Of a DNA stretch of 64,000 nt, positions 29,285 through 53,749 are shown in pieces. The translations under genes were made by a program, and so were the position numbers. Below the pieces are notes generated by a model. It did not search any database. It saw only the letters and a program-made list of their open reading frames with translations, and was not told the DNA's origin. Origin of the DNA: Eledone cirrhosa (taxonomy: Eukaryota); assembly GCA_964016885.1 (NCBI GenBank), contig OZ024745.1:30628001-30692000 (forward strand). Reading direction: 5' to 3'. How positions within the stretch are numbered: position 1 is the first letter of the stretch; the number at the start of each line of letters is the position of its first letter.

Positions 29285-32268
<2,984 letters not shown>

Positions 32269-32329
32269 ATGATGGCTGCCCCCTCGTTATCGAGTATGGC
32301 CATTGCACAATAAAAAAAAAAAAAAAAAA

Positions 32330-32377
<48 letters not shown>
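32269..32377 (-). mobile_element. Detached 3' terminus of the RTE at 50955-53077 (ATT tract, T run, terminal stem-loop)
   Basis: Reverse complement ATTGTGCAATGGCCATACTCGATAACGAGGGGGCAGCCATCAT, identical to the terminus at about 53707-53749. Confidence 0.9.
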
Positions 32378-32379
<2 letters not shown>

Positions 32380-32624
32380 TTTCTTTATTAACCACAAGGG
32401 TTTACATAAAGTAGACATTAAGGACAGTGCAGGACAATGCAGGACGGTACAAATGGGCATTTCTGCGTGTAAAAAACAAAAACAGAGGATGTAACAAAAA
32501 TAACAATGAAAAATTCCCCAATAGGGGGGAGACTTCGGAGGGACATTTGTGGAGAAAGCCCAGTAAAAAGCCACAATGACCCTGACCACCAAGGCAAGTG
32601 CCCTCTCCCAGTTTTCCACCTTTA

Positions 32625-35600
32625 ATTTACAGATATATGCTCAGAGTAGGCCCATTCACTCGGGCCATTCTTGCTTCTCTCACCCATCTTTCAACAAAAT
32701 GCTGGAAGAGAGCACTTCCCTCTCTACTCTGATTTTCCTTTTCAAATGAAATTTGAAAAAGTCAATCAGAGCATCACCGAAGAGGTAAGTGCTCGTCTTC
32801 AGCCCTTTCAAACGTGTCCACCATACTATCTCTTTCGCCATGGCCACCAGGCAGATAAAAACTGCTGCCCTTCCCGGCTAAAGGAGGAGGGCGGGGCAAT
32901 CCTCACGATGGACTCAGATGATAGCCGGATCCGTCCTAAACGCGACAGCAGGTGTTCGACATAAACCCACAAGTCAGCAATTTTCGGACACTGGACGAGT
33001 GCGTGCAGGACGTTTCGTCGCCCTGCGCGCATCTCGGACATGCCCGGCTGACGGCACCTCCATGCCTGTAGAGTTTATCCCGAACTGGCAAGGCTCCTCG
33101 GTAGCACTGCCAGGCCAGAGATTTCTGGAAGTTGTCCATAGGCCCTGGCCCGAAAGTTCTTCCGAAGAGATTGGCTAGTTGATTTTCGTCGACGCCTAGA
33201 GTTTCCCCAAGTACGTCGTCGCTCTTCCCCTCCACTAATCCTCTATAGAACGCCGAGGTGGAGTTTCCACCGATCACATTGCCCGATTGGTCGAGGGCTG
33301 TGAGCGCCTGAAGACATTCCAGTCTCCAGGCGCTCCCTCTCGGTCTTCGCTTGACCCAGGACTGCAGCTCCGTCAAGGAAACGAGCTGGGGAAACACGCG
33401 TCTAGCAAACGGCGACCACACCTGATCACCGTCGAGGAAGAGGTGGAGATGTCGTAGCCTGAGCGCGTGCCTGCGCATCATCAGCCACGGCATGCCCAGC
33501 CCTCCACGTAGCGGGTGTTGACAACAGATGGACCGCCTGACCATCGGAGCGCGTCCCTTCCACAAAAAGCGAAAGAGCAAAACGCTCCAGCACAGTCAGG
33601 CGAGGCTTAGGACAAGGTACGACGGTCAGGCGGTAGCAGATGACGGACGCGATGTACGCGTTAGCCACCTCCGCTCGACCTTTCAGGGATAGCTTCCTCT
33701 CGGCCCATTTCTGGGTGAGAGAAGCCACCCTGCTCGTCACCTCGTCCCAGTTTTTGTCCGTCTGGAGGTCCGGACCGAACCAGACCCCTAGCAATTTAAC
33801 CGGTCCGTCCAGCGTCCGACGGACGCTGTTGGACGGCATGGACCTGCCTCTCCAGGTGCCGAGCTGCAGGCCCACTGACTTTTCCTGGTTGATCATTGCT
33901 CCTGTCACCGCTTCGTATTCTCTTAGTGTAGTGCCGATCGCCTCGATGTGTTTGGCGTTCGACACCACTACGGTGACATCGTCCGCATATGCTGATACGG
34001 ATCTTCCGCATCCTAGTTCGCGCGGGACCCCCCTCAACGTCTCCAGTTTGTGCAGTAATGGCTCGAGAGTCAATACGTACAAGAGGGACGAGAGGGGACA
34101 TCCTTGGCGGACCGAGCGCATGATGTTGAACGTTCCGACAGGTGACCGTTCACTCCTGCACCACAGAGCAGATGTCGCTGTGCATGGCAGCGATCCAGCC
34201 TCTGAAGACGGGCCCAAAGCCAGCCGCCCTCAGGACTGCCGCTAGGTAACGATGGTCGACCCTATCGAAAGCTTTCGACTGATCTAAATTGATCAAGGAC
34301 CCACCCGTGCCAGGTTCCCTAGCTACCCTCTCTACGATGTATCGCATGAGGTGGAGGTTGTCGTGGATGGATCTGTCGGGAATGGCGCATGTCTGCGCCT
34401 CTCCCACCAGACCACCAACGACAAGCGCCAACCTCTTTGCTAGCACCTTGGCCAAAATCTTAAACTCTGTGTTTAGCAGAGTTATGGGCCGGAAATTTTC
34501 TATGTTATCCCCCTTGTTCGGATCCTTTCTCAGCAGTGCCACCGCTCCTCGGCTCACAGAACTGGGAATTCTCCCGTTCTGTTGCCAGTTGCAGTAGACG
34601 TCCGCCAAGAGGCCTCCGAACAAGTCTGGCATCTGTACGTAAAGTTCATAGGGCAGACCATCCAAACCAGGCGATTTACCCCTTGTGCAGCCAGTCATTG
34701 CCTCCCTTACTTCAGCGGCTGTTATCGGCTTTTCGCAACACTTCGCCTCAGTGGCCGAGAGCCGCGGCAGTCCGTCGAGGTAGACACTAAAGTCCATCCC
34801 TCTACCCGGCCCACCGCTGCCCCCGAACAGCTGAGCGAAGTGTCGCTGAAAAGCTTCACACATTTTCCCGGGATCGAGTAGCATGCGCCCGTCGTGGTCC
34901 ACCAAAGACCGGATCGTGGCTTTGTTGCCACGACGCGCCTCCGCCACTCGGGCCCATTGAACGGCTTTCGTCCCCTCGTGTCTGAGAGCACGCACCCTTG
35001 CTCTGACAACGCAGCCTTCGTGCTTTGCATTGAAGAATTGGTCAAGGGCCAATTTCGCCGCAAGCACGTCGGTCGCAATGCCTTTGCTAAGCGCCTCGTC
35101 TAATTTTCTAACTAGTTCTCCCTCTGCTCTATTTTTCTCTATTGCTAAAGCCTTACTAAATCTAATCGATTCTATTCTAATCGCTCTTTTCAGAGCAAAC
35201 CACCACTTGTTGTTGACGATGGCCCCCGTCAACGCCCGCTTAACTAGTTCGCTAATCCGGTCTCTGTAGGCCTTGCGCGCTGGTAAGGACGCGTTTAGCT
35301 TCCAGTAGCCGGGTCCTCGTCTATGAAGCCTATCTAAGTCAAGCACACAGATCACGAATTTGTGGTCCGTGTAGCTGACTATCTTGAATTGTGGACAGCC
35401 TATGCTAGGCCTATCTATTTCCCTACAAAATACTCTATCTAGATATGATCTGGATGACCCTATGCGGTTTGTCCAAGTCCACATTGGCACATTCGGGAAA
35501 TCCAATCGGTACCTGTCAGACAGTTCAAAACGCCTGAGCAGGTTGGTGAGGCTCTTGCACCCTCCACCCCTATCCGCTAATCCCACACAGTCCCAGCGTG

Positions 35601-36042
35601 CATCTAAGATCCCGTTCCAGTCGCCCACTAACACTAAAGAGCGGGACGTTCCAAGAAAGGTCTCCAGACGCCGGAAGAAATCAGGCCGCCCTGCTCCTGT
35701 CGGGGCATAGACGGCCACTAGCCTGAAAGCTTGCCCGTCTCCGCTGGTCACGTCCAGCACCACCAGCTTACCCTCTGGGTCCAGGAAGATGGCCCGTATG
35801 GCGAGATCCAAACCTCTCCGAAAAAGTACAGCAACTCCTCCACCGGATCCAGGACGGCTGGGAGATGCGTACACATCGTAGCCGCCGAAGATCGGTGCGA
35901 AGGCCCGTGCTTCGGAGATTCTGGTCTCGCTGATGGCCACTACATCTATGTTTAGTGACCTGAGGTCGTTGAGCAGGTGACCCTGCTTCCATGACGACCC
36001 CAAGCCACGCGCATTTATGCTGCCTATTCTGAGTGAGGTCAT
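32625..36042 (-). pseudogene. ORF2 (APE-RT) of D1, frameshifted in the 3' half
   Basis: Track ORFs 34150-36042, 33426-34217 and 32936-33580 tile the 1139-aa protein. Confidence 0.85.
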
Positions 36043-36077
36043 GTTTAAAATAGAGTGGAAAAGATGGGAAAGACCAC

Positions 36078-38171
36078 TTACCGTACTTTTGGTAGAGGAG
36101 GGATGGTTTTTACATCCCTTTTCACTTGATCGTCTGGTGAAGGGACCGTTGAATCGTCCCTTCGGCTGGTCGTCGGCTCTTCTAAGAGAATGTCTGAGTA
36201 TACTCTTCGATTGATGGTTCCTCCTAGGTCCCTGAAATCACCAACTGCGTTGGGGAATTTCGTTTTAATATTTGTGTATTGTTTCTGTGCTATTTTTAGC
36301 AGTCTTATGTTAGTTGGCGTTTTGATTGGTGCTGGTATTATGTAGTCCTGTTGTGAAATGTCTGTGTGTTCAATTATGTAAGTCATTAGTTTCTTGTTGT
36401 GTGTATTTATTGCTGTGCATTTGTTTTTCTGGGGGTGGGGTGTGGTTCTACTATTTTCTTGTCGTTGTTGCTGGGTGTGTGTGTTTTGTTGTTGTGTTTG
36501 CGATGTTGGTGCTTGTGGTGGTGGTGTTGAAGGTGTTGTTGGCGGTGGGGTTGTCGCCGGTGCTGATGGTGGTGCTGGTGTGGGTGGTGATGGTGTTGGT
36601 GGTGTTGCTGCTGTGGGTCTCTTTGCAGTTGACTTTACCCTTTTCTCATTTCTTTCCTCCCTTTTCAAAGGCGACGATGCGCTGCTTCTGCGTTTGTGCC
36701 TTCTTGCGACCTTTTGCCATCCCTCTCCCACCTCACACTCCATGTCTGATTCTGTGAGGTCGGGGAGGGGTACCAGCTCCACTCTTTCACTTGTTGTTGT
36801 TGGTGATGTTTGCACTGGAGTCTCTGTTGCAGCTGCATTTGGTATTGCTGTTGTTGTTGTTAATATTTCCACTGCTGCTGCTGTTTTTGATTTCCGTGGA
36901 GTGGGTATGGGTGCCACGGACCTATCGTTCCTGGTTGCCGCATGTCCTGTTGCTGGTAGCCGTGGAGCCGGATTCGGAAGGAGGGGGGTTTTCTCCTTTC
37001 TCAGGGTCTTCTCGTTGCAGAAGGCCCTGAGGTGAGTCTTCGATCCACAGCGAAAGCATTTCGGGCGTTTGCCCTCAACACTTATGGGCAGTTGAGTGCC
37101 GTTATCGAAGTCTATCACATCCGGGATAGCTTCGATGCACTCCTGGTTGGTTTGGATTAGCATCTCAATGGAGGAGCCGACCCAATCTTCTCTTACTTTT
37201 TTCTGTACTTGCAGTACAGTTGTTTTGTCCTCGATTCCGACGAGGACAGACGCGGCCAGCCAAGAAGGGGTCATTCCGGGGGGGACGTGTGTCAGTTTGA
37301 CCCTCACAATTTTTTGCCCGCAGTAGGAGGGCACCAACACCATTTCCTCGCTCCTTAGGGTCACTACTGATTGGGCCTTTGCCTCCTGGGGTGTAGCAAA
37401 AAGTACGTCTACGGTGGCATATTTTTTGCCTCGGGTGATGTGCGTTTTCCGCTGCCACACAGACCCCAAGGCTTTTTGTATTTGGGCCTCTGTGGCTCTT
37501 TCCACCCTACGGGATTTTGTACTTACTGTACGGTACGTGACCGTACAGTGCTCTTGGGTTTCGAAAAATTTTTCCGCTGCCTTGCAGATTGCTCGGTGTC
37601 CGTTCTTTGTCACCATCTTCTTCGCTTCCTCTAATTCCTCATTTGTTATGAGGATTGTTTCCAGGTTTTTCGCAATACCTGCAAATGAGATTGGTTGTTC
37701 TCTGCTGTTGTTGTTGTCGTCAGAGCTGCTGGTACTTTTGTTGTTGCTGCAGGTACTACGACTACTGCCTCCGCCGCTGTTGCTGTGGTTGTTGTTGGTG
37801 TTGCTGCTGCTAATGCTGTTGTTGTTTATGCTGCTGGTGATGCTGTTGCGGCTGCTACTGTTGTTTTCATTGTCACTGTTGCTGTTGTTATTACGGCTGC
37901 TACTGCTATTATTCCTGACGTCAGACGAATGAACTGGGTTTTCGTATTTCCCGCACACCTGTTTCGTCGCTGTCGTCGTCGTGGAGAAACCTTGCACGCT
38001 TTGCACGAGACTTTTCTTTTCTTTCGTCACTTGCGAAAGAGAAGGGAGGGAGAGAGACACATTTAAAGAAGGGAGGGAGAGAGACAATCTTCTCTCTGCT
38101 GTAGTGATGATTGAGGAAGAAGAAGACGGAATGAATGGGAGTGACGTATGAAATTTCTTTTTCGTAGCCAT
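36078..38171 (-). CDS. LINE ORF1 protein (697 aa; Asn/Ser-rich N-terminus, CCHC knuckle, Pro/Thr-rich linker)
   Basis: CFRCGSKTHLRAFC; lies 35 bp upstream of ORF2. Confidence 0.9.
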   Translation of the reverse strand: MATKKKFHTSLPFIPSSSSSIITTAERRLSLSLPSLNVSLSLPSLSQVTKEKKSLVQSVQGFSTTTTATKQVCGKYENPVHSSDVRNNSSSSRNNNSNSDNENNSSSRNSITSSINNNSISSSNTNNNHSNSGGGSSRSTCSNNKSTSSSDDNNNSREQPISFAGIAKNLETILITNEELEEAKKMVTKNGHRAICKAAEKFFETQEHCTVTYRTVSTKSRRVERATEAQIQKALGSVWQRKTHITRGKKYATVDVLFATPQEAKAQSVVTLRSEEMVLVPSYCGQKIVRVKLTHVPPGMTPSWLAASVLVGIEDKTTVLQVQKKVREDWVGSSIEMLIQTNQECIEAIPDVIDFDNGTQLPISVEGKRPKCFRCGSKTHLRAFCNEKTLRKEKTPLLPNPAPRLPATGHAATRNDRSVAPIPTPRKSKTAAAVEILTTTTAIPNAAATETPVQTSPTTTSERVELVPLPDLTESDMECEVGEGWQKVARRHKRRSSASSPLKREERNEKRVKSTAKRPTAATPPTPSPPTPAPPSAPATTPPPTTPSTPPPQAPTSQTQQQNTHTQQQRQENSRTTPHPQKNKCTAINTHNKKLMTYIIEHTDISQQDYIIPAPIKTPTNIRLLKIAQKQYTNIKTKFPNAVGDFRDLGGTINRRVYSDILLEEPTTSRRDDSTVPSPDDQVKRDVKTIPPLPKVR

Positions 38172-38407
38172 GTTGTTTTTTGTTTAAAATGAAATTTTGG
38201 GTACAAAACCCCAATAACTGGTTATTTAACCCCGAAGGGCCAAATAACGGACAGAAAGACCCTTCTCACGAGGAGGAGGGTGTCTTTATCAACAATTTGG
38301 TTCAAGTTTTAAACAATTTACAATTGTTTTAACGGTTAAAAATTACTATACCTTACAGAGCCGAGCCTCCGTCAACCATGGCATTCAATAATAATAATAA
38401 TAATAAA

Positions 38408-38443
<36 letters not shown>

Positions 38444-38449
38444 GAAAAG

Positions 38450-38482
<33 letters not shown>

Positions 38483-38602
38483 TATACATACATATATATA
38501 TACACATATATACACACACACATACATACATATACATACATATATACACACACACATACATACACATACACTCACACATATATACACACATACATTAATA
38601 AC

Positions 38603-38646
<44 letters not shown>

Positions 38647-38906
38647 TTTCTTTATTAACCACAAGGGTTTACATAAAGTAGACATTAAGGACAGTGCAGG
38701 ACAATGCAGGACGGTACAAATGGGCATTTCTGCGTGTAAAAAACAAAAACAGAGGATGTAACAAAAATAACAATGAAAATAACAATGAAAAAATTCCCCA
38801 ATAGGGGGGAGACTTCGGAGGGACATTTGTGGAGAAAGCCCAGTAAAAAGCCACAATGACCCTGACCACCAAGGCAAGTGCCCTCTCCCAGTTTTCCACC
38901 TTTAGT

Positions 38907-41900
38907 TTACAGATATATACTCAGAGTCGGCCCATTCACTCGGGCCATTCTTGCTTCTCTCACCCATCTTTCAACAAAATGCTGGGAAGAGAGCACTTCC
39001 TTCTCTACTCTGATTTTCCTTTTCAAATGAAATTTGAAAAAGTCAATCAGAGCATCACCGAAGAGGTAAGTGCTCGTCTTCAGCCCTTTCAAACGTGTCC
39101 ACCATACTATCTCTTTCGCCATGGCCACCAGACAGATAAAAACTGCCTGCCCTTCCCGGCTAAAGGAGGAGGGCGGGGCAATCCTCACGATAGACTCAGA
39201 TGATAGCTGGATCCGTCCTAAACGCGACAGCAGGTGTTCGACATAAACCCACAAGTCAGCAATTTTCGGACACTGGACGAGTGCGTGCAGGACGGTTTCG
39301 TCGCCCTGCGCGCATCTCGGACATGCCCGGCTGACGGCACCTCCATGCCTGTAGAGTTTATCCCGAACTGGCAAGGCTCCTCGGTAGCACTGCCAGGCCA
39401 GAGATTTCTGGAAGTTGTCCATAGGCCCTGGCCCGAAAGTTCTTCCGAAGAGATTGGCTAGTTGATTTTCGTCGACGCCTAGAGTTTCCCCAAGTACGTC
39501 GTCGCTCTTCCCCTCCACTAATCCTCTATAGAACGCCGAGGTGGAGTTTCCACCGATCACATTGCCCGATTGGTCGAGGGCTGTGAGCGCCTGAAGACAT
39601 TCCAGTCTCCAGGCGCTCCCTCTCGGTCTTCGCTTGACCCAGGACTGCAGCTCCGTCAAGGAAACGAGCTGGGGAAAAACGCGTCTAGCAAACGGCGACC
39701 ACACCTGATCACCGTCGAGGAAGAGGTGGAGATGTCGTAGCCTGAGCGCGTGCCTGCGCATCATCAGCCACGGCATGCCCAGCCCTCCACGTAGCGGGTG
39801 TTGACAACAGATGGACCGCCTGACCATCGGAGCACGTCCCTTCCACAAAAAGCGAAAGAGCAAACGCTCCAGCGCAGTCAGGCGAGGCTTAGGACAAGGT
39901 ACGACGGTTAGGCGGTAGCAGATGACAGACGCGATGTACGCGTTAGCCACCTCCGCTCGACCTTTCAGGGATAGCTTCCTCTCCGCCCATTTCTGGGTGA
40001 GAGAAGCCACCCTGCTCGTCACCTCGTCCCAGTTTTTGTCCGTCTGGAGGTCCGGACCGAACCAGACCCCTAGCAATTTAACCGGTCCGTCCGTCCAGCG
40101 CCCGACGACGCTGTTGGACGGCATGGACCTGCCTCTCCAGGTGCCGAGCTGCAGGCCCACTGACTTTTCCTGGTTGATCATTGCTCCTGTCACCGCTTCG
40201 TATTCTCTTAGTGTAGTGCCGATCGCCTCGATGTGTTTGGCGTTCGACACCACTACGGTGACATCGTCCGCATATGCTGACACGGATCTTCCGCATCCTA
40301 GTTCGCGCGGGACTCCCCTCAACGTCTCCAGTTTGTGCAGTAATGGCTCGAGAGTCAATACGTACAAGAGGGACGAGAGGGGACATCCTTGGCGGACCGA
40401 GCGCATGATGTTGAACGGTTCCGACAGGTGACCGTTCACTCTCACCACAGAGCAGATGTCGCTGTGCATGGCAGCGATCCAGCCTCTGAAGACGGGCCCA
40501 AAGCCAGCCGCCCTCAGGACTGCCGCTAGGTAACGATGGTCGACCCTATCGAAAGCTTTCGACTGATCTAAATTGATCAAGGACCCACCCGTGCCAGGTT
40601 CCCTAGCTACCCTCTCTACGATGTATCGCATGAGGTGGAGGTTGTCGTGGATGGATCTGTCGGGAATGGCGCATGTCTGCGCCTCTCCCACCAGACCACC
40701 AACGACAAGCGCCAACCTCTTTGCTAGCACCTTGGCCAAAATCTTAAACTCTGTGTTTAGCAGAGTTATGGGCCGGAAATTGTCTATGTTATCCCCCTTG
40801 TTCGGATCCTTTCTCAGCAGTGCCACCGCTCCTCGGCTCACAGAACTGGGAATTCTCCCGTTCTGTTGCCAGTTGCAGTAGACGTCCGCCAAGAGGCCTC
40901 CGAACAAGTCTGGCATCTGTACGTAAAGTTCATAGGGCAGACCATCCAAACCAGGCGATTTACCCCTTGTGCAGCCAGTCATTGCCTCCCGTACTTCAGC
41001 GGCTGTTATCGGCTTTTCGCAACACTTCGCCTCAGTGGCCGAGAGCCGCGGCAGTCCGTCGAGGTAGACACTAAAGTCCATCCCTCTACCCGGCCCCCCG
41101 CTGCCCCCGAACAGCTGAGCGAAGTGTCGCTGAAAAGCTTCACACATTTGCCCGGGATCGAGTAGCATGCGCCCGTCGTGGTCCACCAAAGACCGGATCG
41201 TGGCTTTGTTGCCACGACGCGCCTCCGCGACTCGGGCCCATTGAACGGCTTTCGTCCCCTCGTGTCTGAGAGCACGCACCCTAGCTCTGACAACGCAGCC
41301 TTCGTGCTTTGCATTGAAGAATTGGTCAAGGGCCAATTTCGCCGCAAGCACGTCGGTCGCAATGCCTTTGCTAAGCGCCTCGTCTAATTTTCTAACTAGT
41401 TCTCCCTCTGCTCTATTTTTCTCTATTGCTAAAGCCTTACTAAACCTAATCGATTCTATTCTAATCGCTCTTTTCAGAGCAAACCACCACTTGTTGTTGA
41501 CGATGGCCCCCGTCAACGCCCGCTTCACTAGTTCGCTAATCCGGTCTCTGTAGGCCTTGCGCGCTGGTAAGGACGCGTTTAGCTTCCAGTAGCCGGGTCC
41601 TCGTCTATGAAGCCTATCTAAGTCAAGCACACAGATCACGAATTTGTGGTCCGTGTAGCTGACTATCTTGAATTGTGGACAGCCTATGCTAGACCTATCT
41701 ATTTCCCTACAAAATACTCTATCTAGATATGATCTGGGTGACCCTATGCGGTTTGTCCAAGTCCACATTGGCACATTCGGGAAATCCAATCGGTACCTGT
41801 CAGACAGTTCAAAACGCCTGAGCAGGTTGGTGAGGCTCTTGCACCCTCCACCCCTATCCGCTAATCCCACACAGTCCCAGCGTGCATCTAAGATCCCGTT

Positions 41901-42361: not shown

Positions 42362-44455
42362 TTACCGTACTTTTGGTAGAGGAGGGATGGTTTTTACATC
42401 CCTTTTCACTTGATCGTCTGGTGAAGGGACCGTTGAATCGTCCCTTCGGCTGGTCGTCGGCTCTTCTAAGAGAATGTCTGAGTATACTCTTCGATTGATG
42501 GTTCCTCCTAGGTCCCTGAAATCACCAACTGCGTTGGGGAATTTCGTTTTAATGTTTGTGTATTGTTTCTGTGCTATTTTTAGCAGTCTTATGTTAGTTG
42601 GCGTTTTGATTGGTGCTGGTATTATGTAGTCCTGTTGTGAAATGTCTGTGTGTTCAATTATGTAAGTCATTAGTTTCTTGTTGTGTGTATTTATTGCCGT
42701 GCATTTGTTTTTCTGGGGGTGGGGTGTGGTTCTGCTATTTTCTTGTCGTTGTTGCTGGGTGTGTGTGTTTTGTTGTTGTGTTTGCGATGTTGGTGCTTGT
42801 GGTGGTGGTGTTGAAGGTGTTGTTGGCGGTGGGGTTGTCGCCGGTGGTGATGGTGGCGCTAGTGTGGGTGGTGATGGTGTTGGTGTTGTTGCTGCTGTGG
42901 GTCTCTTTGCAGTAGACTTTACCCTTTTCTCATTTCTTTCCTCCCTTTTCAAAGGCGACGATGCGCTGCTTCTGCGTTTGTGCCTTCTTGAGACCTTTTG
43001 CCATCCCTCTCCCACCTCACACTCCATGTCTGATTCTGTAAGGTCGGGGAGGGGTACCAGCTCCACTCTTTCACTTGTTGTTGTTGGTGATGTTTGCACT
43101 GGAGTCTCTGTTGCAGCTGCATTTGGTATTGCTGTTGTTGTTGTTAATATTTCCACTGCTGCTGCTGTCTTTGATTTCCGTGGAGTGGGTATGGGTGCCA
43201 CGGACCTATCGTTCCTGGTTGCCGCTTGTCCTGTTGCTGGTAGCCGTGGAACCGGATTCGGGAGGAGGGGGGTTTTCTCCTTTCTCAGGGTCTTCTCGTT
43301 GCAGAAGGCCCTGAGGTGAGTCTTCGATCCACAGCGAAAGCATTTCGGGCGTTTGCCCTCAACACTTATGGGCAGTTGAGTGCCGTTATCGAAGTCTATC
43401 ACATCCGGGATAGCTTCGATGCACTCCTGGTTGGTTTGGATTAGCATCTCAATGGAGGAGCCGACCCAATCTTCTCTTACTTTTTTCTGTACTTGCAGTA
43501 CAGTTGTTTTGTCCTCGATTCCGACGAGGACAGACGCGGCCAGCCAAGAAGGGGTCATTCCGGGGGGGACGTGGGTCAGTTTGACCCTCACAATTTTTTG
43601 CCCGCAGTAGGAGGGCACCAACACCATTTCCTCGCTCCTTAGGGTCACTACTGATTGGGCCTTTGCCTCCTGGGGTGTGGCAAAAAGTACGTCTACGGTG
43701 GCGTATTTTTTGCCTCGGGTGATGTGCGTTTTCCTCTGCCACACAGACCCCAAGGCTTTTTGTATTTGGGCCTCTGTGGCTCTTTCCACCCTACGGGATT
43801 TTGTACTTACTGTACGGTACGTGACCGTACAGTGCTCTTGGGTTTCGAAAAAATTTTTCGCTGCCTTGCAGATTGCTCGGTGTCCGTTCTTTGTCACCAT
43901 CTTCTTCGCTTCCTCTAATTCCTCATTTGTTATGAGGATTGTTTCCAGGTTTTTCGCAATACCTGCAAATGAGATTGGTTTTTCTCTGCTGTTGTTGTTG
44001 TCGTCAGAGCTGCTGGTACTTTTGTTGTTGCTGCAGGTACTACGACTACTGCCTCCGCCGCTGTTGCTGTGGTTGTTGTTGGTGTTGCTGCTGCTAATGC
44101 TGTTGTTGTTTATGCTGCTGGTGATGCTGTTGCGGCTGCTACTGTTGTTTTCATTGTCACTGTTGCTGTTGTTATTACGGCTGCTACTGCTATTATTCCT
44201 GACGTCAGACGAATGAACTGGGTTTTCGTATTTCCCGCACACCTGTTTCGTCGCTGTCGTCGTCGTGGAGAAACCTTGCACGCTTTGCACGAGACTTTTC
44301 TTTTCTTTCGTCACTTGCGAAAGAGAAGGGAGGGAGAGAGACACATTTAAAGAAGGGAGGGAGAGAGACAATCTTCTCTCTGCTGTAGTGATGATTGAGG
44401 AAGAAGAAGACGGAATGAATGGGAGTGACGTATGAAATTTCTTTTTCGTAGCCAT
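42362..44455 (-). CDS. LINE ORF1 protein (697 aa)
   Basis: As D1 ORF1; CCHC knuckle. Confidence 0.9.
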   Translation of the reverse strand: MATKKKFHTSLPFIPSSSSSIITTAERRLSLSLPSLNVSLSLPSLSQVTKEKKSLVQSVQGFSTTTTATKQVCGKYENPVHSSDVRNNSSSSRNNNSNSDNENNSSSRNSITSSINNNSISSSNTNNNHSNSGGGSSRSTCSNNKSTSSSDDNNNSREKPISFAGIAKNLETILITNEELEEAKKMVTKNGHRAICKAAKNFFETQEHCTVTYRTVSTKSRRVERATEAQIQKALGSVWQRKTHITRGKKYATVDVLFATPQEAKAQSVVTLRSEEMVLVPSYCGQKIVRVKLTHVPPGMTPSWLAASVLVGIEDKTTVLQVQKKVREDWVGSSIEMLIQTNQECIEAIPDVIDFDNGTQLPISVEGKRPKCFRCGSKTHLRAFCNEKTLRKEKTPLLPNPVPRLPATGQAATRNDRSVAPIPTPRKSKTAAAVEILTTTTAIPNAAATETPVQTSPTTTSERVELVPLPDLTESDMECEVGEGWQKVSRRHKRRSSASSPLKREERNEKRVKSTAKRPTAATTPTPSPPTLAPPSPPATTPPPTTPSTPPPQAPTSQTQQQNTHTQQQRQENSRTTPHPQKNKCTAINTHNKKLMTYIIEHTDISQQDYIIPAPIKTPTNIRLLKIAQKQYTNIKTKFPNAVGDFRDLGGTINRRVYSDILLEEPTTSRRDDSTVPSPDDQVKRDVKTIPPLPKVR

Positions 44456-44691
44456 GTTGTTTTTTGTTTAAAATGAAATTTTGGGTACAAAACCCCAATA
44501 ACTGGTTATTTAACCCCGAAGGGCCAAATAACGGACAGAAAGACCCTTCTCACGAGGAGGAGGGTGTCTTTATCAACAATTTGGTTCAAGTTTTAAACAA
44601 TTTACAATTGTTTTAACGGTTAAAAATTACTATACCTTACAGAGCCGAGCCTCCGTCAACCATGGCATTCAATAATAATAATAATAATAAA

Positions 44692-44730
<39 letters not shown>

Positions 44731-44735
44731 AAAAG

Positions 44736-44768
<33 letters not shown>

Positions 44769-44888
44769 TATACATACATATATATATACACATATATACA
44801 CACACACATACATACATATACATACATATATACACACACACATACATACACATACACTCACACATATATACACACATACATTAATAAC

Positions 44889-44938
<50 letters not shown>

Positions 44939-45199
44939 TTTCTTTATTAACCACAAGGGTTTACATAAAGTAGACATTAAGGACAGTGCAGGACAATGCA
45001 GGACGGTACAAATGGGCATTTCTGCGTGTAAAAAAAACAAAAATAGAGGATGTAACAAAAATAACAATGAAAATAACAATGAAAAATTCCCCAATAGGGG
45101 GGAGACTTCGGAGGGACATTTGTGGAGAAAGCCCAGTAAAAAGCCACAATGACCCTGACCACCAAGGCAAGTGCCCTCTCCCAGTTTTCCACCTTTAGT

Positions 45200-48100
45200 T
45201 TACAGATATATACTCAGAGTCGGCCCATTCACTCGGGCCATTCTTGCTTCTCTCACCCATCTTTCAACAAAATGCTGGGAAGAGAGCACTTCCTTCTCTA
45301 CTCTGATTTTCCTTTTCAAATGAAATTTGAAAAAGTCAATCAGAGCATCACCGAAGAGGTAAGTGCTCGTCTTCAGCCCTTTCAAACGTGTCCACCATAC
45401 TATCTCTTTCGCCATGGCCACCAGACAGATAAAAACTGCCTGCCCTTCCCGGCTAAAGGAGGAGGGCGGGGCAATCCTCACGATAGACTCAGATGATAGC
45501 TGGATCCGTCCTAAACGCGACAGCAGGTGTTCGACATAAACCCACAAGTCAGCAATTTTCGGACACTGGACGAGTGCGTGCAGGACGGTTTCGTCGCTCT
45601 GCGCGCATCTCGGACATGCCCGGCTGACGGCACCTCCATGCCTGTAGAGTTTATCCCGAACTGGCAAGGCTCCTCGGTAGCACTGCCAGGCCAGAGATTT
45701 CTGGAAGTTGTCCATAGGCCCCGGCCCGAAAGTTCTTCCGAAGAGATTGGCTAGTTGATTTTCGTCGACGCCTAGAGTTTCCCCAAGTACGTCGTCGCTC
45801 TTCCCCTCCACTAATCCTCTATAGAACGCCGAGGTGGAGTTTCCACCGATCACATTGCCCGATTGGTCGAGGGCTGTGAGCGCCTGAAGACATTCCAGTC
45901 TCCAGGCGCTCCCTCTCGGTCTTCGCTTGACCCAGGACTGCAGCTCCGTCAAGGAAACGAGCTGGGGAAAAACGCGTCTAGCAAACGGCGACCACACCTG
46001 ATCACCGTCGAGGAAGAGGTGGAGATGTCGTAGCCTGAGCGCGTGCCTGCGCATCATCAGCCACGGCATGCCCAGCCCTCCACGTAGCGGGTGTTGACAA
46101 CAGATGGACCGCCTGACCATCGGAGCACGTCCCTTCCACAAAAAGCGAAAGAGCAAACGCTCCAGCGCAGTCAGGCGAGGCTTAGGACAAGGTACGACGG
46201 TTAGGCGGTAGCAGATGACAGACGCGATGTACGCGTTAGCCACCTCCGCTCGACCTTTCAGGGATAGCTTCCTCTCCGCCCATTTCTGGGTGAGAGAAGC
46301 CACCCTGCTCGTCACCTCGTCCCAGTTTTTGTCCGTCTGGAGGTCCGGACCGAACCAGACCCCTAGTAATTTAACCGGTCCGTCCGTCCAGCGCCCGACG
46401 ACGCTGTTGGACGGCATGGACCTGCCTCTCCAGGTGCCGAGCTGCAGGCCCACTGACTTTTCCTGGTTGATCATTGCTCCTGTCACCGCTTCGTATTCTC
46501 TTAGTGTAGTGCCGATCGCCTCGATGTGTTTGGCGTTCGACACCACTACGGTGACATCGTCCGCATATGCTGACACGGATCTTCCGCATCCTAGTTCGCG
46601 CGGGACTCCCCTCAACGTCTCCAGTTTGTGCAGTAATGGCTCGAGAGTCAATACGTACAAGAGGGACGAGAGGGGACATCCTTGGCGGACCGAGCGCATG
46701 ATGTTGAACGGTTCCGACAGGTGACCGTTCACTCTCACCACAGAGCAGATGTCGCTGTGCATGGCAGCGATCCAGCCTCTGAAGACGGGCCCAAAGCCAG
46801 CCGCCCTCAGGACTGCCGCTAGGTAACGATGGTCGACCCTATCGAAAGCTTTCGACTGATCTAAATTGATCAAGGACCCACCCGTGCCAGGTTCCCTAGC
46901 TACCCTCTCTACGATGTATCGCATGAGGTGGAGGTTGTCGTGGATGGATCTGTCGGGAATGGCGCATGTCTGCGCCTCTCCCACCAGACCACCAACGACA
47001 AGCGCCAACCTCTTTGCTAGCACCTTGGCCAAAATCTTAAACTCTGTGTTTAGCAGAGTTATGGGCCGGAAATTGTCTATGTTATCCCCCTTGTTCGGAT
47101 CCTTTCTCAGCAGTGCCACCGCTCCTCGGCTCACAGAACTGGGAATTCTCCCGTTCTGTTGCCAGTTGCAGTAGACGTCCGCCAAGAGGCCTCCGAACAA
47201 GTCTGGCATCTGTACGTAAAGTTCATAGGGCAGACCATCCAAACCAGGCGATTTACCCCTTGTGCAGCCAGTCATTGCCTCCCTTACTTCAGCGGCTGTT
47301 ATCGGCTTTTCGCAACACTTCGCCTCAGTGGCCGAGAGCCGCGGCAGTCCGTCGAGGTAGACACTAAAGTCCATCCCTCTACCCGGCCCACCGCTGCCCC
47401 CGAACAGCTGAGCGAAGTGTCGCTGAAAAGCTTCACACATTTGCCCGGGATCGAGTAGCATGCGCCCGTCGTGGTCCACCAAAGACCGGATCGTGGCTTT
47501 GTTGCCACGACGCGCCTCCGCCACTCGGGCCCATTGAACGGCTTTCGTCCCCTCGTGTCTGAGAGCACGCACCCTAGCTCTGACAACGCAGCCTTCGTGC
47601 TTTGCATTGAAGAATTGGTCAAGGGCCAATTTCGCCGCAAGCACGTCGGTCGCAATGCCTTTGCTAAGCGCCTCGTCTAATTTTCTAACTAGTTCTCCCT
47701 CTGCTCTATTTTTCTCTATTGCTAAAGCCTTACTAAACCTAATCGATTCTATTCTAATCGCTCTTTTCAGAGCAAACCACCACTTGTTGTTGACGATGGC
47801 CCCCGTCAACGCCCGCTTAACTAGTTCGCTAATCCGGTCTCTGTAGGCCTTGCGCGCTGGTAAGGACGCGTTTAGCTTCCAGTAGCCGGGTCCTCGTCTA
47901 TGAAGCCTATCTAAGTCAAGCACACAGATCACGAATTTGTGGTCCGTGTAGCTGACTATCTTGAATTGTGGACAGCCTATGCTAGACCTATCTATTTCCC
48001 TACAAAATACTCTATCTAGATATGATCTGGATGACCCTATGCGGTTTGTCCAAGTCCACATTGGCACATTCGGGAAATCCAATCGGTACCTGTCAGACAG

Positions 48101-48619
48101 TTCAAAACGCCTGAGCAGGTTGGTGAGGCTCTTGCACCCTCCACCCCTATCCGCTAATCCCACACAGTCCCAGCGTGCATCTAAGATCCCGTTCCAGTCG
48201 CCCACTAACACTAAAGAGCGCGACGTTCCAAGAAAGGTCTCCAGACGCCGGAAGAAATCAGGCCGCCCTGCTCCTGTCGGGGCATAGACGGCCACTAGCC
48301 TGAAAGCTTGCCCGTCTCCGCTGGTCACGTCCAGCACCACCAGCTTACCCTCTGGGTCCAGGAAGATGGCCCGTATGGCGAGATCCAAACCTCTCCGAAA
48401 AAGCACAGCAACTCCTCCACCCGATCCAGGACGGCTGGGAGATGCGTACACATCGTAGCCGCCGAAGATCGGTGCGAAGGCCCGTGCTTCGGAGATTCTG
48501 GTCTCGCTGATGGCCACTACATCTATGTTTAGTGACCTGAGGTCGTTGAGCAGGTGACCCTGCTTCCATGACGACCCCAAGCCACGCGCATTTATGCTGC
48601 CTATTCTGAGTGAGGTCAT
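45200..48619 (-). CDS. LINE ORF2: APE-RT (1139 aa)
   Basis: Same motifs as 38907-42326, uninterrupted. Confidence 0.97.
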   Translation of the reverse strand: MTSLRIGSINARGLGSSWKQGHLLNDLRSLNIDVVAISETRISEARAFAPIFGGYDVYASPSRPGSGGGVAVLFRRGLDLAIRAIFLDPEGKLVVLDVTSGDGQAFRLVAVYAPTGAGRPDFFRRLETFLGTSRSLVLVGDWNGILDARWDCVGLADRGGGCKSLTNLLRRFELSDRYRLDFPNVPMWTWTNRIGSSRSYLDRVFCREIDRSSIGCPQFKIVSYTDHKFVICVLDLDRLHRRGPGYWKLNASLPARKAYRDRISELVKRALTGAIVNNKWWFALKRAIRIESIRFSKALAIEKNRAEGELVRKLDEALSKGIATDVLAAKLALDQFFNAKHEGCVVRARVRALRHEGTKAVQWARVAEARRGNKATIRSLVDHDGRMLLDPGQMCEAFQRHFAQLFGGSGGPGRGMDFSVYLDGLPRLSATEAKCCEKPITAAEVREAMTGCTRGKSPGLDGLPYELYVQMPDLFGGLLADVYCNWQQNGRIPSSVSRGAVALLRKDPNKGDNIDNFRPITLLNTEFKILAKVLAKRLALVVGGLVGEAQTCAIPDRSIHDNLHLMRYIVERVAREPGTGGSLINLDQSKAFDRVDHRYLAAVLRAAGFGPVFRGWIAAMHSDICSVVRVNGHLSEPFNIMRSVRQGCPLSSLLYVLTLEPLLHKLETLRGVPRELGCGRSVSAYADDVTVVVSNAKHIEAIGTTLREYEAVTGAMINQEKSVGLQLGTWRGRSMPSNSVVGRWTDGPVKLLGVWFGPDLQTDKNWDEVTSRVASLTQKWAERKLSLKGRAEVANAYIASVICYRLTVVPCPKPRLTALERLLFRFLWKGRAPMVRRSICCQHPLRGGLGMPWLMMRRHALRLRHLHLFLDGDQVWSPFARRVFPQLVSLTELQSWVKRRPRGSAWRLECLQALTALDQSGNVIGGNSTSAFYRGLVEGKSDDVLGETLGVDENQLANLFGRTFGPGPMDNFQKSLAWQCYRGALPVRDKLYRHGGAVSRACPRCAQSDETVLHALVQCPKIADLWVYVEHLLSRLGRIQLSSESIVRIAPPSSFSREGQAVFICLVAMAKEIVWWTRLKGLKTSTYLFGDALIDFFKFHLKRKIRVEKEVLSSQHFVERWVREARMARVNGPTLSIYL

Positions 48620-48654
48620 GTTTAAAATAGAGTGGAAAAGATGGGAAAGACCAC

Positions 48655-50739
48655 TTACCGTATTTTTGGTAGAGGAGGGATGGTTTTTACATCCCTTTTC
48701 ACTTGATCGTCTGGTGAAGGGACCGTTGAATCGTCCCTTCGGCTGGTCGTCGGCTCTTCTAAGAGAATGTCTGAATATACTCTTCGATTAATGGTTCCTC
48801 CTAGGTCCCTGAAATCACCAACTGCGTTGGGGAATTTCGTTTTAATGTTTGTGTATTGTTTCTGTGCTATTTTTAGCAGTCTTATGTTAGTTGGCGTTTT
48901 GATTGGTGCTGGTATTATGTAGTCCTGTTGTGAAATGTCTGTGTGTTCAATTATGTAAGTCATTAGTTTCTTGTTGTGTGTGTTTATTGCCGTGCATTTG
49001 TTTTTCTGGGGGTGGGGTGTGGTTCTGCTATTTTCTTGTCGTTGTTGCTGGGTGTGTGTGTTTTGTTGTTGTGTTTGCGATGTTGGTGCTTGTGGTGGTG
49101 GTGTTGAAGGTGTTGTTGGCGGTGGGGTTGTCGCCGGTGGTGATGGTGGTGCTGGTGTGGGTGGTGATGGTGTTGGTGGTGTTGCTGCTGTGGGTCTCTT
49201 TGCAGTAGACTTTACCCTTTTCTCATTTCTTTCCTCCCTTTTCAAAGGCGACGATGCGCTGCTTCTGCGTTTGTGCCTTCTTTGCCATCCCTCTCCCACC
49301 TCACACTCCATGTCTGATTCTGTAAGGTCGGGGAGGGGTACCAGCTCCACTCTTTCACTTGTTGTTGTTGGTGATGTTTGCACTGGAGTCTCTGTTGCAG
49401 CTGCATTTGGTATTGCTGTTGTTGTTGTTAATATTTCCACTGCTGCTGCTGTCTTTGATTTCCGTGGAGTGGGTATGGGTGCCACGGACCTATCGTTCCT
49501 GGTTGCCGCTTGTCCTGTTGCTGGTAGCCGTGGAACCGGATTCGGGAGGAGGGGGGTTTTCTCCTTTCTCAGGGTCTTCTCGTTGCAGAAGGCCCTGAGG
49601 TGAGTCTTCGATCCACAGCGAAAGCATTTCGGGCGTTTGCCCTCAACACTTATGGGCAGTTGAGTGCCGTTATCGAAGTCTATCACATCCGGGATAGCTT
49701 CGATGCACTCCTGGTTGGTTTGGATTAGCATCTCAATGGAGGAGCCGACCCAATCTTCTCTTACTTTTTTCTGTACTTGCAGTACAGTTGTTTTGTCCTC
49801 GATTCCGACGAGGACAGACGCGGCCAGCCAAGAAGGGGTCATTCCGGGGGGGACGTGGGTCAGTTTGACCCTCACAATTTTTTGCCCGCAGTAGGAGGGC
49901 ACCAACACCATTTCCTCGCTCCTTAGGGTCACTACTGATTGGGCCTTTGCCTCCTGGGGTGTGGCAAAAAGTACGTCTACGGTGGCGTATTTTTTGCCTC
50001 GGGTGATGTGCGTTTTCCTCTGCCACACAGACCCCAAGGCTTTTTGTATTTGGGCCTCTGTGGCTCTTTCCACCCTACGGGATTTTGTACTTACTGTACG
50101 GTACGTGACCGTACAGTGCTCTTGGGTTTCGAAAAAATTTTTCGCTGCCTTGCAGATTGCTCGGTGTCCGTTCTTTGTCACCATCTTCTTCGCTTCCTCT
50201 AATTCCTCATTTGTTATGAGGATTGTTTCCAGGTTTTTCGCAATACCTGCAAATGAGATTGGTTTTTCTCTGCTGTTGTTGTTGTCGTCAGAGCTGCTGG
50301 TACTTTTGTTGTTGCTGCAGGTACTACGACTACTGCCTCCGCCGCTGTTGCTGTGGTTGTTGTTGGTGTTGCTGCTGCTAATGCTGTTGTTGTTTATGCT
50401 GCTGGTGATGCTGTTGCGGCTGCTACTGTTGTTTTCATTGTCACTGTTGCTGTTGTTATTACGGCTGCTACTGCTATTATTCCTGACGTCAGACGAATGA
50501 ACTGGGTTTTCGTATTTCCCGCACACCTGTTTCGTCGCTGTCGTCGTCGTGGAGAAACCTTGCACGCTTTGCACGAGACTTTTCTTTTCTTTCGTCACTT
50601 GCGAAAGAGAAGGGAGGGAGAGAGACACATTTAAAGAAGGGAGGGAGAGAGACAATCTTCTCTCTGCTGTAGTGATGATTGAGGAAGAAGAAGACGGAAT
50701 GAATGGGAGTGACGTATGAAATTTCTTTTTCGTAGCCAT
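48655..50739 (-). CDS. LINE ORF1 protein (694 aa)
   Basis: As D1 and D2 ORF1. Confidence 0.9.
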   Translation of the reverse strand: MATKKKFHTSLPFIPSSSSSIITTAERRLSLSLPSLNVSLSLPSLSQVTKEKKSLVQSVQGFSTTTTATKQVCGKYENPVHSSDVRNNSSSSRNNNSNSDNENNSSSRNSITSSINNNSISSSNTNNNHSNSGGGSSRSTCSNNKSTSSSDDNNNSREKPISFAGIAKNLETILITNEELEEAKKMVTKNGHRAICKAAKNFFETQEHCTVTYRTVSTKSRRVERATEAQIQKALGSVWQRKTHITRGKKYATVDVLFATPQEAKAQSVVTLRSEEMVLVPSYCGQKIVRVKLTHVPPGMTPSWLAASVLVGIEDKTTVLQVQKKVREDWVGSSIEMLIQTNQECIEAIPDVIDFDNGTQLPISVEGKRPKCFRCGSKTHLRAFCNEKTLRKEKTPLLPNPVPRLPATGQAATRNDRSVAPIPTPRKSKTAAAVEILTTTTAIPNAAATETPVQTSPTTTSERVELVPLPDLTESDMECEVGEGWQRRHKRRSSASSPLKREERNEKRVKSTAKRPTAATPPTPSPPTPAPPSPPATTPPPTTPSTPPPQAPTSQTQQQNTHTQQQRQENSRTTPHPQKNKCTAINTHNKKLMTYIIEHTDISQQDYIIPAPIKTPTNIRLLKIAQKQYTNIKTKFPNAVGDFRDLGGTINRRVYSDILLEEPTTSRRDDSTVPSPDDQVKRDVKTIPPLPKIR

Positions 50740-50954
50740 GTTGTTTTTTGTTTAAAATGAAATTTTGGGTACAAAACCCCAATAACTGGTTATTTAACCC
50801 CGAAGGGCCAAATAACGGACAGAAAGACCCTTCTCACGAGGAGGAGGGTGTCTTTATCAACAATTTGGTTCAAGTTTTAAACAATTTACAATTGTTTTAA
50901 CGGTTAAAAATTACTATACCTTACAGAGCCGAGCCTCCGTCAACCATGGCATTC

Positions 50955-50975
50955 AATAATAATAATAATAATAAA

Positions 50976-51013
<38 letters not shown>

Positions 51014-51018
51014 AAAAG

Positions 51019-51051
<33 letters not shown>

Positions 51052-51171
51052 TATACATACATATATATATACACATATATACACACACACATACATACAT
51101 ATACATACATATATACACACACACATACATACACATACACTCACACATATATACACACATACATTAATAAC

Positions 51172-51223
<52 letters not shown>

Positions 51224-51302
51224 GCAATAATAATAATAACGACAACAACTATAATAATATACATATTCATATATATATACACACACACGCACGCACATAA
51301 GC

Positions 51303-51340
<38 letters not shown>

Positions 51341-53077
51341 GATAGCAACTAACAGTGCTGCGATCGAATGTGGCTTTTTAGCCCAGCCAATGATCTAAAA
51401 TGTCTTGCACAGAGTCGGCAACCAAAACATTTACTGGGAATAGTCGGCTGTGGTTGGAGTTCGTGTACTTTTGCATGTCGCTTGAGTCCTCCTGCTGATT
51501 TACATTCTCTACCACATGTTTGGCAAGCATGATGAGTAGCATCTCCAACAGCAGCCTGGTAGTCAACCACTGGTCTTACTTTATGACTGCGAAGATGACT
51601 TTCGAGTCCAGCTTTGCTTAGGCAGAGTCTCGCACAGACGCTGCATGTCAGAAACATAGGAGGACCCTCGCCGTCTGGAAGTGCAACAGCAATGCCCTTC
51701 CTCACGTCCCGCTTTACTTTCTCGTGTGCGATTCGAGATGCCTCAAAGGCAACTTTTCCCTCATATACAGTCTTTCTCCATTTATTACGATCAGCAGCAA
51801 TATTTTCCCATGTATCAGCAGAGATGTTAGCGTCTTTCAGAGAGGCTTTCAAGGAATCCTTATACCTCTTTTTTGGTTTATGTGGCGGTCGTTTTCCTTT
51901 AACCAACTCTCCATAGAAGAGTTGTTTTGGTATTCTAGAATCCTTCATCCTGGCAAGGTGACCACTCCAACGGAGTCGCTGCTTAAGCACAAGAGCCTCT
52001 ATACTGTCACACATAGAGCTTTCCAAAATCTCGACATCACTGATGTGGTCCCTCCAGCGAACGCCATGTATCCGTCTGAGACACATCTGATGGAAACGCT
52101 CCAATTGCTTAAGGTGGCGTCGATATGTGACCCAGGTCTCGCAGGCATAAAGAAGACAAGAGAGTACACATGCCCTGTACACCTTTACCTTTGTCCTCCT
52201 GCATATGTCTCGCCGACCCCAGAGTCGCCTTTCTAGCTTTCCGAAAGCATCACTTGCTTTCCTAATCCTAAGTGAGATTTCACCGTCAAGGTTGCCGTAT
52301 CGATTGACAGTGCTTCCCAGGTAGACAAACTGATCAACCACTCCAAGTCGTTTGCCATACACATAGATGTTTGGTTCAGTGTACTGCCCACCAGGTGCAG
52401 GTTGGTACATGACGACGGTTTTCTTGAGACTGACAGTCAAACCCAGGGCAGTGCAAGCGTCAGAAAATACATTCAAAATGTGCTGCATATCACTCTCTGT
52501 GTGCGCTACAAGATCGCAATCATCTGCATACAAGAGGTCTCTTATGACTGATGTAAATACTTTTGTCTTCGCAACAAAGCGCCTGATGTTAAATATGCTG
52601 CCTGAGGTTCGATATCGGATGTAAACACCATGCTCGCAATTCCTGAATGCAATACAGAAAACCATTGCAAAGTATATGGCAAACAGGGTCGGTGCTGGAA
52701 TATCCCCCTGTTTCACTCCATTTTTTACTGAGATAGGCTCCGACATGTTACCTCCGACATTAACCCAAGCCTTCATGTCGTCATGGAAAGACCTAACTAA
52801 AGCAAGGAACTTATCAGGGCAACCAAGTTTCTGGAGAACCTTCCATAATGCATCTCTGTTGACAGTATCGAAAGCCTTTGTCAGATCGACAAAAACCTGA
52901 TACAGATCCAAGCCCTGTTCAATGCACTTCTCCTGGAGCTGTCTAGCTGAGAAGATCATATCAGTAGTGCCGCGTCCAACACGAAAACCAGATTGACTTT
53001 CAGGAAGGACACAATCTGCAATGTGTGTCAGCAGACGGTCCAGAAGCACCCTACATAAAACTTTCCCCACGACAGAA
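50955..53077 (-). mobile_element. RTE-clade LINE with three C-terminal C2H2 fingers, 5'-truncated; 3'UTR interrupted by the Tx1 array
   Basis: Open frame 51349-53070: PESQSGFR, FVDLTKAFDTV, GVKQG, LLYADD, YLGS, YACETW, LRWSGH; fingers CSVC..H..H, CQTC..H..H, CRLC..H..H. Confidence 0.95.
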
Positions 53078-53284
53078 TGGAGATGCTACTCATCATGCTT
53101 GCCAAACATGTGGTAGAGAATGTAAATCAGCAGGAGGACTCAAGCGACATGCAAAAGTACACGAACTCCAACCACAGCCGACTATTCCCAGTAAATGTTT
53201 TGGTTGCCGACTCTGTGCAAGACATTTTAGATCATTGGCTGGGCTAAAAAGCCACATTCGATCGCAGCACTGTTAGTTGCTATC

Positions 53285-53322
<38 letters not shown>

Positions 53323-53401
53323 GCTTATGTGCGTGCGTGTGTGTGTATATATATATGAATATGTATATTATTATTGTTGTTGTCGTTATTATTATTATTG
53401 C

Positions 53402-53447
<46 letters not shown>

Positions 53448-53567
53448 GTTATTAATGTATGTGTGTATATATGTGTGAGTGTATGTGTATGTATGTGTGT
53501 GTGTATATATGTATGTATATGTATGTATGTGTGTGTGTATATATGTGTATATATATATGTATGTATA

Positions 53568-53600
<33 letters not shown>

Positions 53601-53631
53601 CTTTTCCCTTTTTTTTTTTTTTTTTTTTTAA

Positions 53632-53681
<50 letters not shown>

Positions 53682-53749
53682 TTTTTTTTTTTTTTTTTCT
53701 TTTTTTATTGTGCAATGGCCATACTCGATAACGAGGGGGCAGCCATCAT
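53078..53749 (+). mobile_element. Inverted partial copy of the same RTE (last two fingers and complete uninterrupted 3'UTR)
   Basis: Reverse complement of about 50955-51547 joined directly to the reverse complement of 32269-32377. Confidence 0.93.

Follow-up and report, generated by a model that had tools for sequence, protein, structure and literature searches.

How can three nearly identical retrotransposons come to stand head to tail inside the 3' end of a fourth? This question is raised by a 64,000-bp stretch of Eledone cirrhosa DNA (GCA_964016885.1, contig OZ024745.1, positions 30,628,001 to 30,692,000; hereafter the window), in which three full-length Tx1-type long interspersed nuclear elements (LINEs), T1, T2 and T3, interrupt the 3' untranslated region (UTR) of an RTE-like LINE. 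Tx1 elements are already known to inhabit microsatellites or other transposons. More informative than the nesting is the make-up of the stack, which contains spacers of RTE sequence and copies that share their 5' ends yet seem to differ in source. We propose, with somewhat better than even confidence, that the stack arose by three successive retrotranspositions, the second and third of which would have been completed by annealing to the resident copy. The features concerned, in the numbering of the window, are as follows.

29283..32267, no strand: (TA)n tract, C-interrupted on the plus strand, left flank of the RTE insertion
32269..32329, minus: RTE 3' terminus (terminal ~45 bp; possible, weak stem-loop) and T run
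32330..32377, minus: downstream part of RTE ATT tract 2, (ATT)16, abutting the 3' end of T1
32378..38386, minus: T1, 6009 bp, full length, open reading frame (ORF) 1 intact, ORF2 broken by 8 small indels
38387..38644, minus: spacer S1, a copy of RTE UTR sequence comprising a portion of ATT tract 1, the TG/TA microsatellite, a T run and (ATT)6
38645..44670, minus: T2, 6026 bp, with ORF1 of 697 aa (42362-44455, CCHC knuckle)
38907-42326, minus: ORF2 of T2, 1139 aa, with endonuclease, reverse transcriptase (RT) and zf-RVT
44671..44936, minus: spacer S2, a further copy of the same RTE UTR sequence
44937..50954, minus: T3, 6018 bp, with ORF1 (694 aa) and ORF2 (1139 aa) both intact
50955..51348, minus: RTE 3'UTR on the upstream side of the array, with (ATT)6, a T run, the microsatellite, the 17 units of ATT tract 1 and a GT repeat
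51349..53085, minus: RTE-like ORF, 5'-truncated, 578 aa, RT and C-terminal C2H2 fingers
53078..53927, plus: inverted twin of the RTE 3' end, comprising the tail of the ORF, a UTR whose two ATT tracts are empty, the terminus (53749) and ~178 bp of mirrored TA tail
62186..64000, minus: independent RTE copy in a TA tract, with two empty ATT tracts of 8 and 10 units, running off the end of the window

The nesting noticed by the sequence-only reading was confirmed. On the minus strand, 51349 is the last position of the RTE-like ORF, and the UTR that follows continues as far as 50955; past an insert of 18,577 bp (32378-50954) this UTR resumes with (ATT)16, the T run and the terminus (32377-32269). 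The insert had been taken for 18.6 kb of Tx1; the size is right, but the insert is not pure Tx1, being made up of 18,053 bp of Tx1 sequence and two spacers duplicated from the RTE UTR, 258 and 266 bp long. T1-T3 lie head to tail and share one orientation relative to the ATT strand. The array had also been placed in a single one of the two ATT tracts, which stand about 220 bp apart in the RTE UTR. This holds for T1, whose 3' end abuts tract 2, but the 3' ends of T2 and T3 abut tract 1; therefore both tracts were used, not one.

The RTE UTR inside the array unit is the main clue to how the array grew. S1 and S2 depart from the UTR piece beside T3 only in the lengths of the T run and the ATT tract, and the compound microsatellite of about 150 bp that they include matches the local twin arm exactly, unlike the independent RTE copy, which argues for local copying. 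Exactly (ATT)6 is found at all three 5' junctions of T1-T3, while two other Tx1-family copies of the window, A and C (described below), have 10 and 3 units. The filled site holds 22 ATT units and the empty one 14, the first insertion having added only about 8. The 8 frameshifting indels of T1 (1-4 bp) all fall in sense 4228-5685 (32700-34160), the 3' 1.5 kb of ORF2; this cluster is possibly an assembly error next to the TA tract or the mark of a dead template.

Both supposedly empty RTE copies, at 53078-53749 and 62186-64000, do carry two uninterrupted ATT tracts. However, 53078-53749 was rejected as an independent empty site, as its head-to-head fusion with the truncated 5' end of the filled copy, its near-identity to that copy (1 substitution in ~590 bp upstream of ATT tract 2) and its mirrored TA tail mark it as part of the same insertion. 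It is a twin from the same RTE event, made via cDNA fold-back or a second cDNA, and it is a snapshot of the RTE UTR before the arrival of Tx1. The inversion junction shows 9-bp microhomology, with nine bases common to both arms. L1 fold-back junctions at reverse-transcribed ends are described in PMC11702581; they likewise combine an inverted junction, microhomology and a reverse-transcribed end, whereas here a short, stable inverted twin of the RTE 3' end was formed, not a chromosome-scale structure. Beside the junction (53060-53090), the RTE ORF shifts frame inside a conserved GISLLS-GK motif. The junction bases encode on the minus strand the start of this motif, which is GIS in 69 of the 81 homologues with the pattern (120 examined). 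Given the frame shift, a few bases seem to have been lost from the truncated RTE end.

The copy at 62186-64000 is 94% identical to the filled RTE over 1769 bp, and its microsatellite differs. The two-tract UTR, said earlier to be intrinsic to the RTE family, is present in both independent insertions; since the copy at 53078 is a twin and only the one at 62186 is independent, this statement rests on two insertions. Tx1 occupies both tracts in one of the two. In both, the RTE terminus runs into TA/TG repeats, and the TA tract adjoining the terminus of the filled copy is about 3 kb long. RTE 3' ends have been described as microsatellite-like (PMC6007223). The terminal stem-loop of the earlier reading can be drawn but was rejected as evidence, as shuffled sequences fold as well in the two identical copies (z -0.45, 62/200 shuffles as good), and it is marginal in the third (z -1.84, 7/200).

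T1 differs from T2 by 0.85% and from T3 by 0.83%, and T2 differs from T3 by 0.33%. Among T1-T3, 38 of the 58 coding substitutions are synonymous against about 29% in simulated neutral change (binomial p 9e-9), and pure in-situ duplication followed by neutral drift is rejected by this excess. Synonymous changes make up 12 of 19 between T2 and T3 (p 0.002), 7 of 9 among the private coding changes of T3 (p 0.003), and 26 of 39 in T1, where two synonymous coding substitutions adjoin indels and may be alignment effects. In addition, the RTE twin arms are older than the array and nonetheless less diverged, at one substitution in ~590 bp, than T1 is from T2. Because of the synonymous excess and the lower divergence of the older arms, the bodies of T1-T3 appear to come from different active sources. 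Of the 8 T1-odd sites in the 3' part that can be polarised, 4 have the outgroup base in T1; polarisation is ambiguous at 17 of 36 ORF2 and 3' sites.

At their 5' ends, T1, T2 and T3 show zero differences over sense 1-689, and T2 and T3 are identical over sense 1-1672 (T3 49283-50954, T2 42999-44670), the first T2/T3 difference being a 9-bp deletion at the edge of the identical block. Under a uniform null such blocks have p values of 0.008 (689 bp, all three) and 0.0015 (1672 bp, T2/T3). The 5' UTR and the low-complexity ORF1 start are the least conserved part of T1-T3 relative to copies A and C. Further downstream, sense 690-1784 holds 13 T1-only differing sites, and the private sites of T1, T2 and T3 number 9, 10 and 6 in sense 1785-3680 and 18, 0 and 4 in sense 3681-6026. 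Since all three copies differ in sense 1785-3680, two alleles cannot account for them. From the nested identical 5' blocks we infer the order T1, T2, T3, with T1 the oldest and T3 the youngest copy.

On the basis of these comparisons we propose the following history. The RTE would have landed in the TA tract, leaving an inverted twin of its own 3' end, and T1 would have inserted into ATT tract 2. A second Tx1 particle would then have made its nick in ATT tract 1, some 220 bp upstream of T1, and reverse-transcribed at least 5.3 kb of its RNA. Upon pairing with the 5' part of T1, the cDNA end would be extended back across the T1 5' end and on through spacer and ATT tract; the T2 so formed would begin with at most the first 689 bp of T1. 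A like round upstream of T2 would yield a T3 that takes at most its first 1.7 kb from T2. As an intact upstream ATT tract is restored in each round, the process can repeat. Here the RTE would supply the two tracts 220 bp apart, and any ATT tract upstream of a resident would serve. Gilbert et al. reportedly described chimeric L1s with duplication in 2005. In L1 templated insertions the cDNA likewise leaves its RNA, pairs with nearby DNA and duplicates that DNA (10.1101/2024.08.27.596794); these insertions are typically <250 bp and single events in tumours or cultured cells, whereas the copied stretches here would be 0.3-1.9 kb, made twice in succession at one inherited locus with the target restored.

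Several points weigh against this history. It works only if the sources of T2 and T3 were mosaics of one another, and it leaves three hits by one subfamily at one locus within a short time unexplained. The T2/T3 differences are patchy, with 16 in sense 1785-3680 and 4 in 3681-6026 (p 0.0014), so that the uniform null overstates the significance of the 5' blocks; at the lowest local rates the p values become 0.05 (T2/T3) and 0.14 (T1). The private sites of T2 all lie in one 1.9-kb patch that resembles a conversion tract, with no significant synonymous excess (5 of 10, p 0.13). The frameshift cluster of T1 amid mostly synonymous substitutions hints at an assembly error. Finally, this is a single locus, whose junctions are taken as assembled.

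The patchiness brings in a mixed history, in which one or two insertions were followed by duplication of a spacer plus Tx1 through unequal exchange or slippage between ATT tracts, and by patch conversion from dispersed copies. T2 and T3 are 99.7% identical and differ mainly in the one 1.9-kb patch, the unit is flanked by ATT tracts on both sides, and tandem dimers expand by unequal exchange in R1 and hobo (PMC5932611). Such a history is in our view unlikely, though not negligible, as T3 has four private substitutions in the 3' 2.3 kb where T2 has none, 7 of its 9 private coding changes are synonymous (p 0.003), and T1 differs over 5.3 kb with a synonymous excess, so that a conversion tract must reach the exact 3' end. 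It is improbable that the copies are ordinary full-length insertions with a target-site duplication of about 260 bp, produced by nicks in ATT tract 1 and at the 5' junction of the resident, with the 5' identity coming from conserved or mosaic sources. Tandem non-LTR copies with a target duplicate between them are common (PMC5932611; SINEU-3 in PMC4494074), and the T1 block reaches a p of only 0.14 at the lowest local rate; however, the shared (ATT)6 at all three 5' junctions against 10 and 3 in A and C, the addition of only ~8 ATT units by the first insertion (22 against 14) and the poor conservation of the 5' UTR and ORF1 start relative to A and C do not favour it.

A partial assembly artefact would involve false tandem copies, or spacers and 5' blocks homogenised by polishing. 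The locus does lie between TA tracts of 3 kb and more, the clustered 1-4 bp indels of T1 resemble consensus error, and the structure is as assembled. Set against this are three distinct sequences in one segment with a synonymous excess, the outgroup bases of T1 at 4 of 8 polarisable T1-odd 3' sites, and a twin arm without the array, which speaks against read fold-back; we regard an artefact as improbable, too. The RTE spacer at the 5' end of all three window copies of the T1-T3 subfamily could also reflect a dedicated partnership, in which the Tx1 subfamily would have acquired a leader of RTE UTR in a composite source and be guided to RTE copies by homology; by BLAST, the 5' UTR of this subfamily matches neither that of A nor that of C. 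This idea receives the least credence from us: the spacers equal the local twin arm exactly and not the independent RTE, which indicates local copying; the second RTE copy is empty; and one would expect leaders of different origin to vary like the bodies.

The class assignment of the elements is based on their ORFs. ORF2 of the Tx1 copies matches Pfam PF03372, PF00078 and PF13966 and has a CCHC finger at residue 1002. In a PDB sequence search it matched L1 ORF2p over residues 5-854 (E 8e-52) and R2 over the RT only (E 1e-21), L1 ORF2p being the closest among solved structures. No Pfam match was found for ORF1, which contains a zinc knuckle, C-x2-C-x4-H-x4-C, at residue 372; ORF1 of the Tx1 clade typically bears a gag-like zinc knuckle. 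These features fit a placement of T1-T3 in the L1/Tx1 group. A name was attached to none of 35 homologues, a cluster look-up of five homologues was equally uninformative as to names, and the Atlas matches of ORF2 were unnamed RT-endonuclease clusters. The ORF at 51349..53085 we take to be RTE from its motifs. At E<=1e-60 it has relatives among 1331 of 8000 candidates, the best being 50-62% identical and none named RTE, and some of its homologues carry a PF14529 endonuclease. RTE elements characteristically have a single ORF with an N-terminal APE endonuclease and a short or absent ORF1; in the window, both copies lack this 5' portion, through truncation or at the window end. An Rfam search of the 5' ends of T3 and copy C gave nothing credible.

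Does the Tx1 family depend on the RTE? The remaining copies of the window bear on this question.

4255..8424, minus: Tx1-family copy A, internally deleted, between (ATT)14 and (ATT)10, RTE absent
8455..9325, plus: decayed 5'-truncated LINE with restriction-like endonuclease motifs, ending at (TAA)n
9344..10651, minus: Tx1-family copy B, 5'-truncated, between (ATT)7 and (ATT)6
10674..16329, minus: Tx1-family copy C, both termini present, 5' end joined to the (ATT)3 that ends a short dispersed repeat
16331-16433: short dispersed repeat, with a second copy at 20310-20411

Copies A, B and C are 72-78% identical to T1-T3 and belong to other subfamilies. In the window, ATT repeats on the sense strand abut all six Tx1 3' ends and all five intact 5' ends. 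The ATT tracts of A-C are bordered by the tail of the LINE fragment at 8455-9325, by another Tx1 tail and by the short dispersed repeat, and tblastn with the RTE ORF gives only weak RT cross-hits in this cluster (4255-16329). Three of the six Tx1-family copies thus lie in ATT tracts without RTE, and one of the two clusters lies in RTE. Since half of the copies use non-RTE ATT tracts, the RTE host is no required partner, and the Tx1 family appears to be a general ATT targeter to which several element types supply ATT; the T1-T3 subfamily, with a 5' UTR unlike those of A and C, may still favour RTE tracts. The translation of 8455-9325 has CCHC, RHD and PD-D-K-like motifs, with Atlas matches unnamed. 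We presume the fragment to be Dong/R4-like. The region 4200-16433 as a whole forms a second cluster of ATT/TAA-targeting elements, with A, B, C and the oppositely oriented Dong/R4-like fragment chained via short ATT tracts.

Outside the window, a metagenome scan yielded 71 loci, all of them only distant relatives (mostly 23-33% over long matches), and an ATT tail downstream of ORF2 was seen in none of 13 loci checked, several contigs ending too early. At least half of the sequence words of 44930-53930 occur in 9 of 24 listed sequencing runs (6 organisms, 5 studies), a result uninformative on junctions and composites; none of the listed runs with these words is an RNA run.

Other features of the window were also noted. 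Positions 1-2708 are taken up by a 60-bp satellite of 44.6 copies with 94% matches, and 3136-4175 by a 46-bp minisatellite whose outer copies have diverged. A 298-codon open frame at 17784-18680 (minus), without a Pfam match, resembles the 3' part of a decayed LINE. A more distant RTE-like 3' fragment at 22236-22725 (minus; 31% to the RTE ORF) ends in (GAT)n at a TA tract, and a 447-bp direct duplication with 95% identity (23256-23702 and 24047-24490) adjoins TA-rich repeats. An RT fragment of a different LINE family lies between TA tracts at 26660-28170 (plus; Pfam RVT_1, E 4e-19). The long TA tract contains two short unique islands, 57237-57700 and 59740-60300, which we take for ends of Penelope-like elements; in the part of the tract that separates them, C-interruptions give way to G-interruptions on the plus strand, which suggests an inverted insertion with its own tail.

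Tx1-clade LINEs are known to target other transposons and microsatellites and to form tandem sequential insertions with a target duplicate between them (PMC4494074). The elements treated there (Xenopus Tx1 in Tx1D, Kibi, Koshi, crocodilian Tx1-Mar and the microsatellite groups) resemble T1-T3 in their two ORFs, APE-type endonuclease, RT and C-terminal CCHC, in insertion into a microsatellite and into another transposon, and in tandem sequential insertions. Unlike these, whose targets are (TC)n, (TTC)n, (TTCC)n or (TTTC)n, the present copies use (ATT)n; they sit in a non-LTR element, which is reached by way of a generic repeat and not a host-specific sequence, and the spacer is ~260 bp in place of a short duplication. 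That paper calls a Tx1 transposon-specific when the host family borders >20% of its genomic copies. Non-LTR tandems in general can originate from double insertion (PMC5932611). R1 arrays in that source likewise hold head-to-tail non-LTR copies with a duplicated target between them, formed by repeated insertion at one site; their spacer is a 33-nt duplication, whereas the present copies use two tracts at a distance of 220 bp, with a duplication that appears to extend into the 5' part of the resident. Dong elements target (TAA)n (PMC7998251), the same microsatellite, and have a Dong-like representative in the left cluster; they differ from Tx1 in their restriction-like endonuclease and belong to an unrelated clade. 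The repeat content of the window is reminiscent of an octopus; L1-Tx1, RTE and Dong-R4 elements are given as recently active in Octopus vulgaris (PMC13282606, Table 1). The literature searched, which did not extend to curated repeat libraries, contained no (ATT)n-targeting Tx1 family, although the supplements of PMC4494074 name additional Tx1 targets, among which ATT may be included. Growth of a retrotransposon array by homology-completed insertion was not found either, with most subscription journals and Repbase outside the search, and nothing relevant was found there on retrotransposons seeding targets for others or on large target duplications with pre-existing copies.

The sequence-only reading saw the RTE as manufacturing landing pads for Tx1. 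The RTE does supply two ATT tracts, both used in one of two insertions, but an exclusive role does not hold with three of six Tx1-family copies outside RTE; the idea is partly supported, in a generic sense. A wider version is a ratchet, in which the two-tract RTE UTR lets a Tx1 insert and later copies prime upstream, finish on the resident and regenerate the target, so that RTE copies would nucleate arrays of 6.3-kb Tx1 units genome-wide; this we consider quite unlikely. If the proposed history is true, the locus would be an inherited LINE array that grew by homology-completed insertion, not by unequal exchange, and in which the order of events can be read. It would suggest a way, open to testing, in which dispersed LINEs give rise to tandem arrays of long units where genomes are rich in microsatellites, and would warn that near-identical tandem LINE copies are not necessarily local duplicates.

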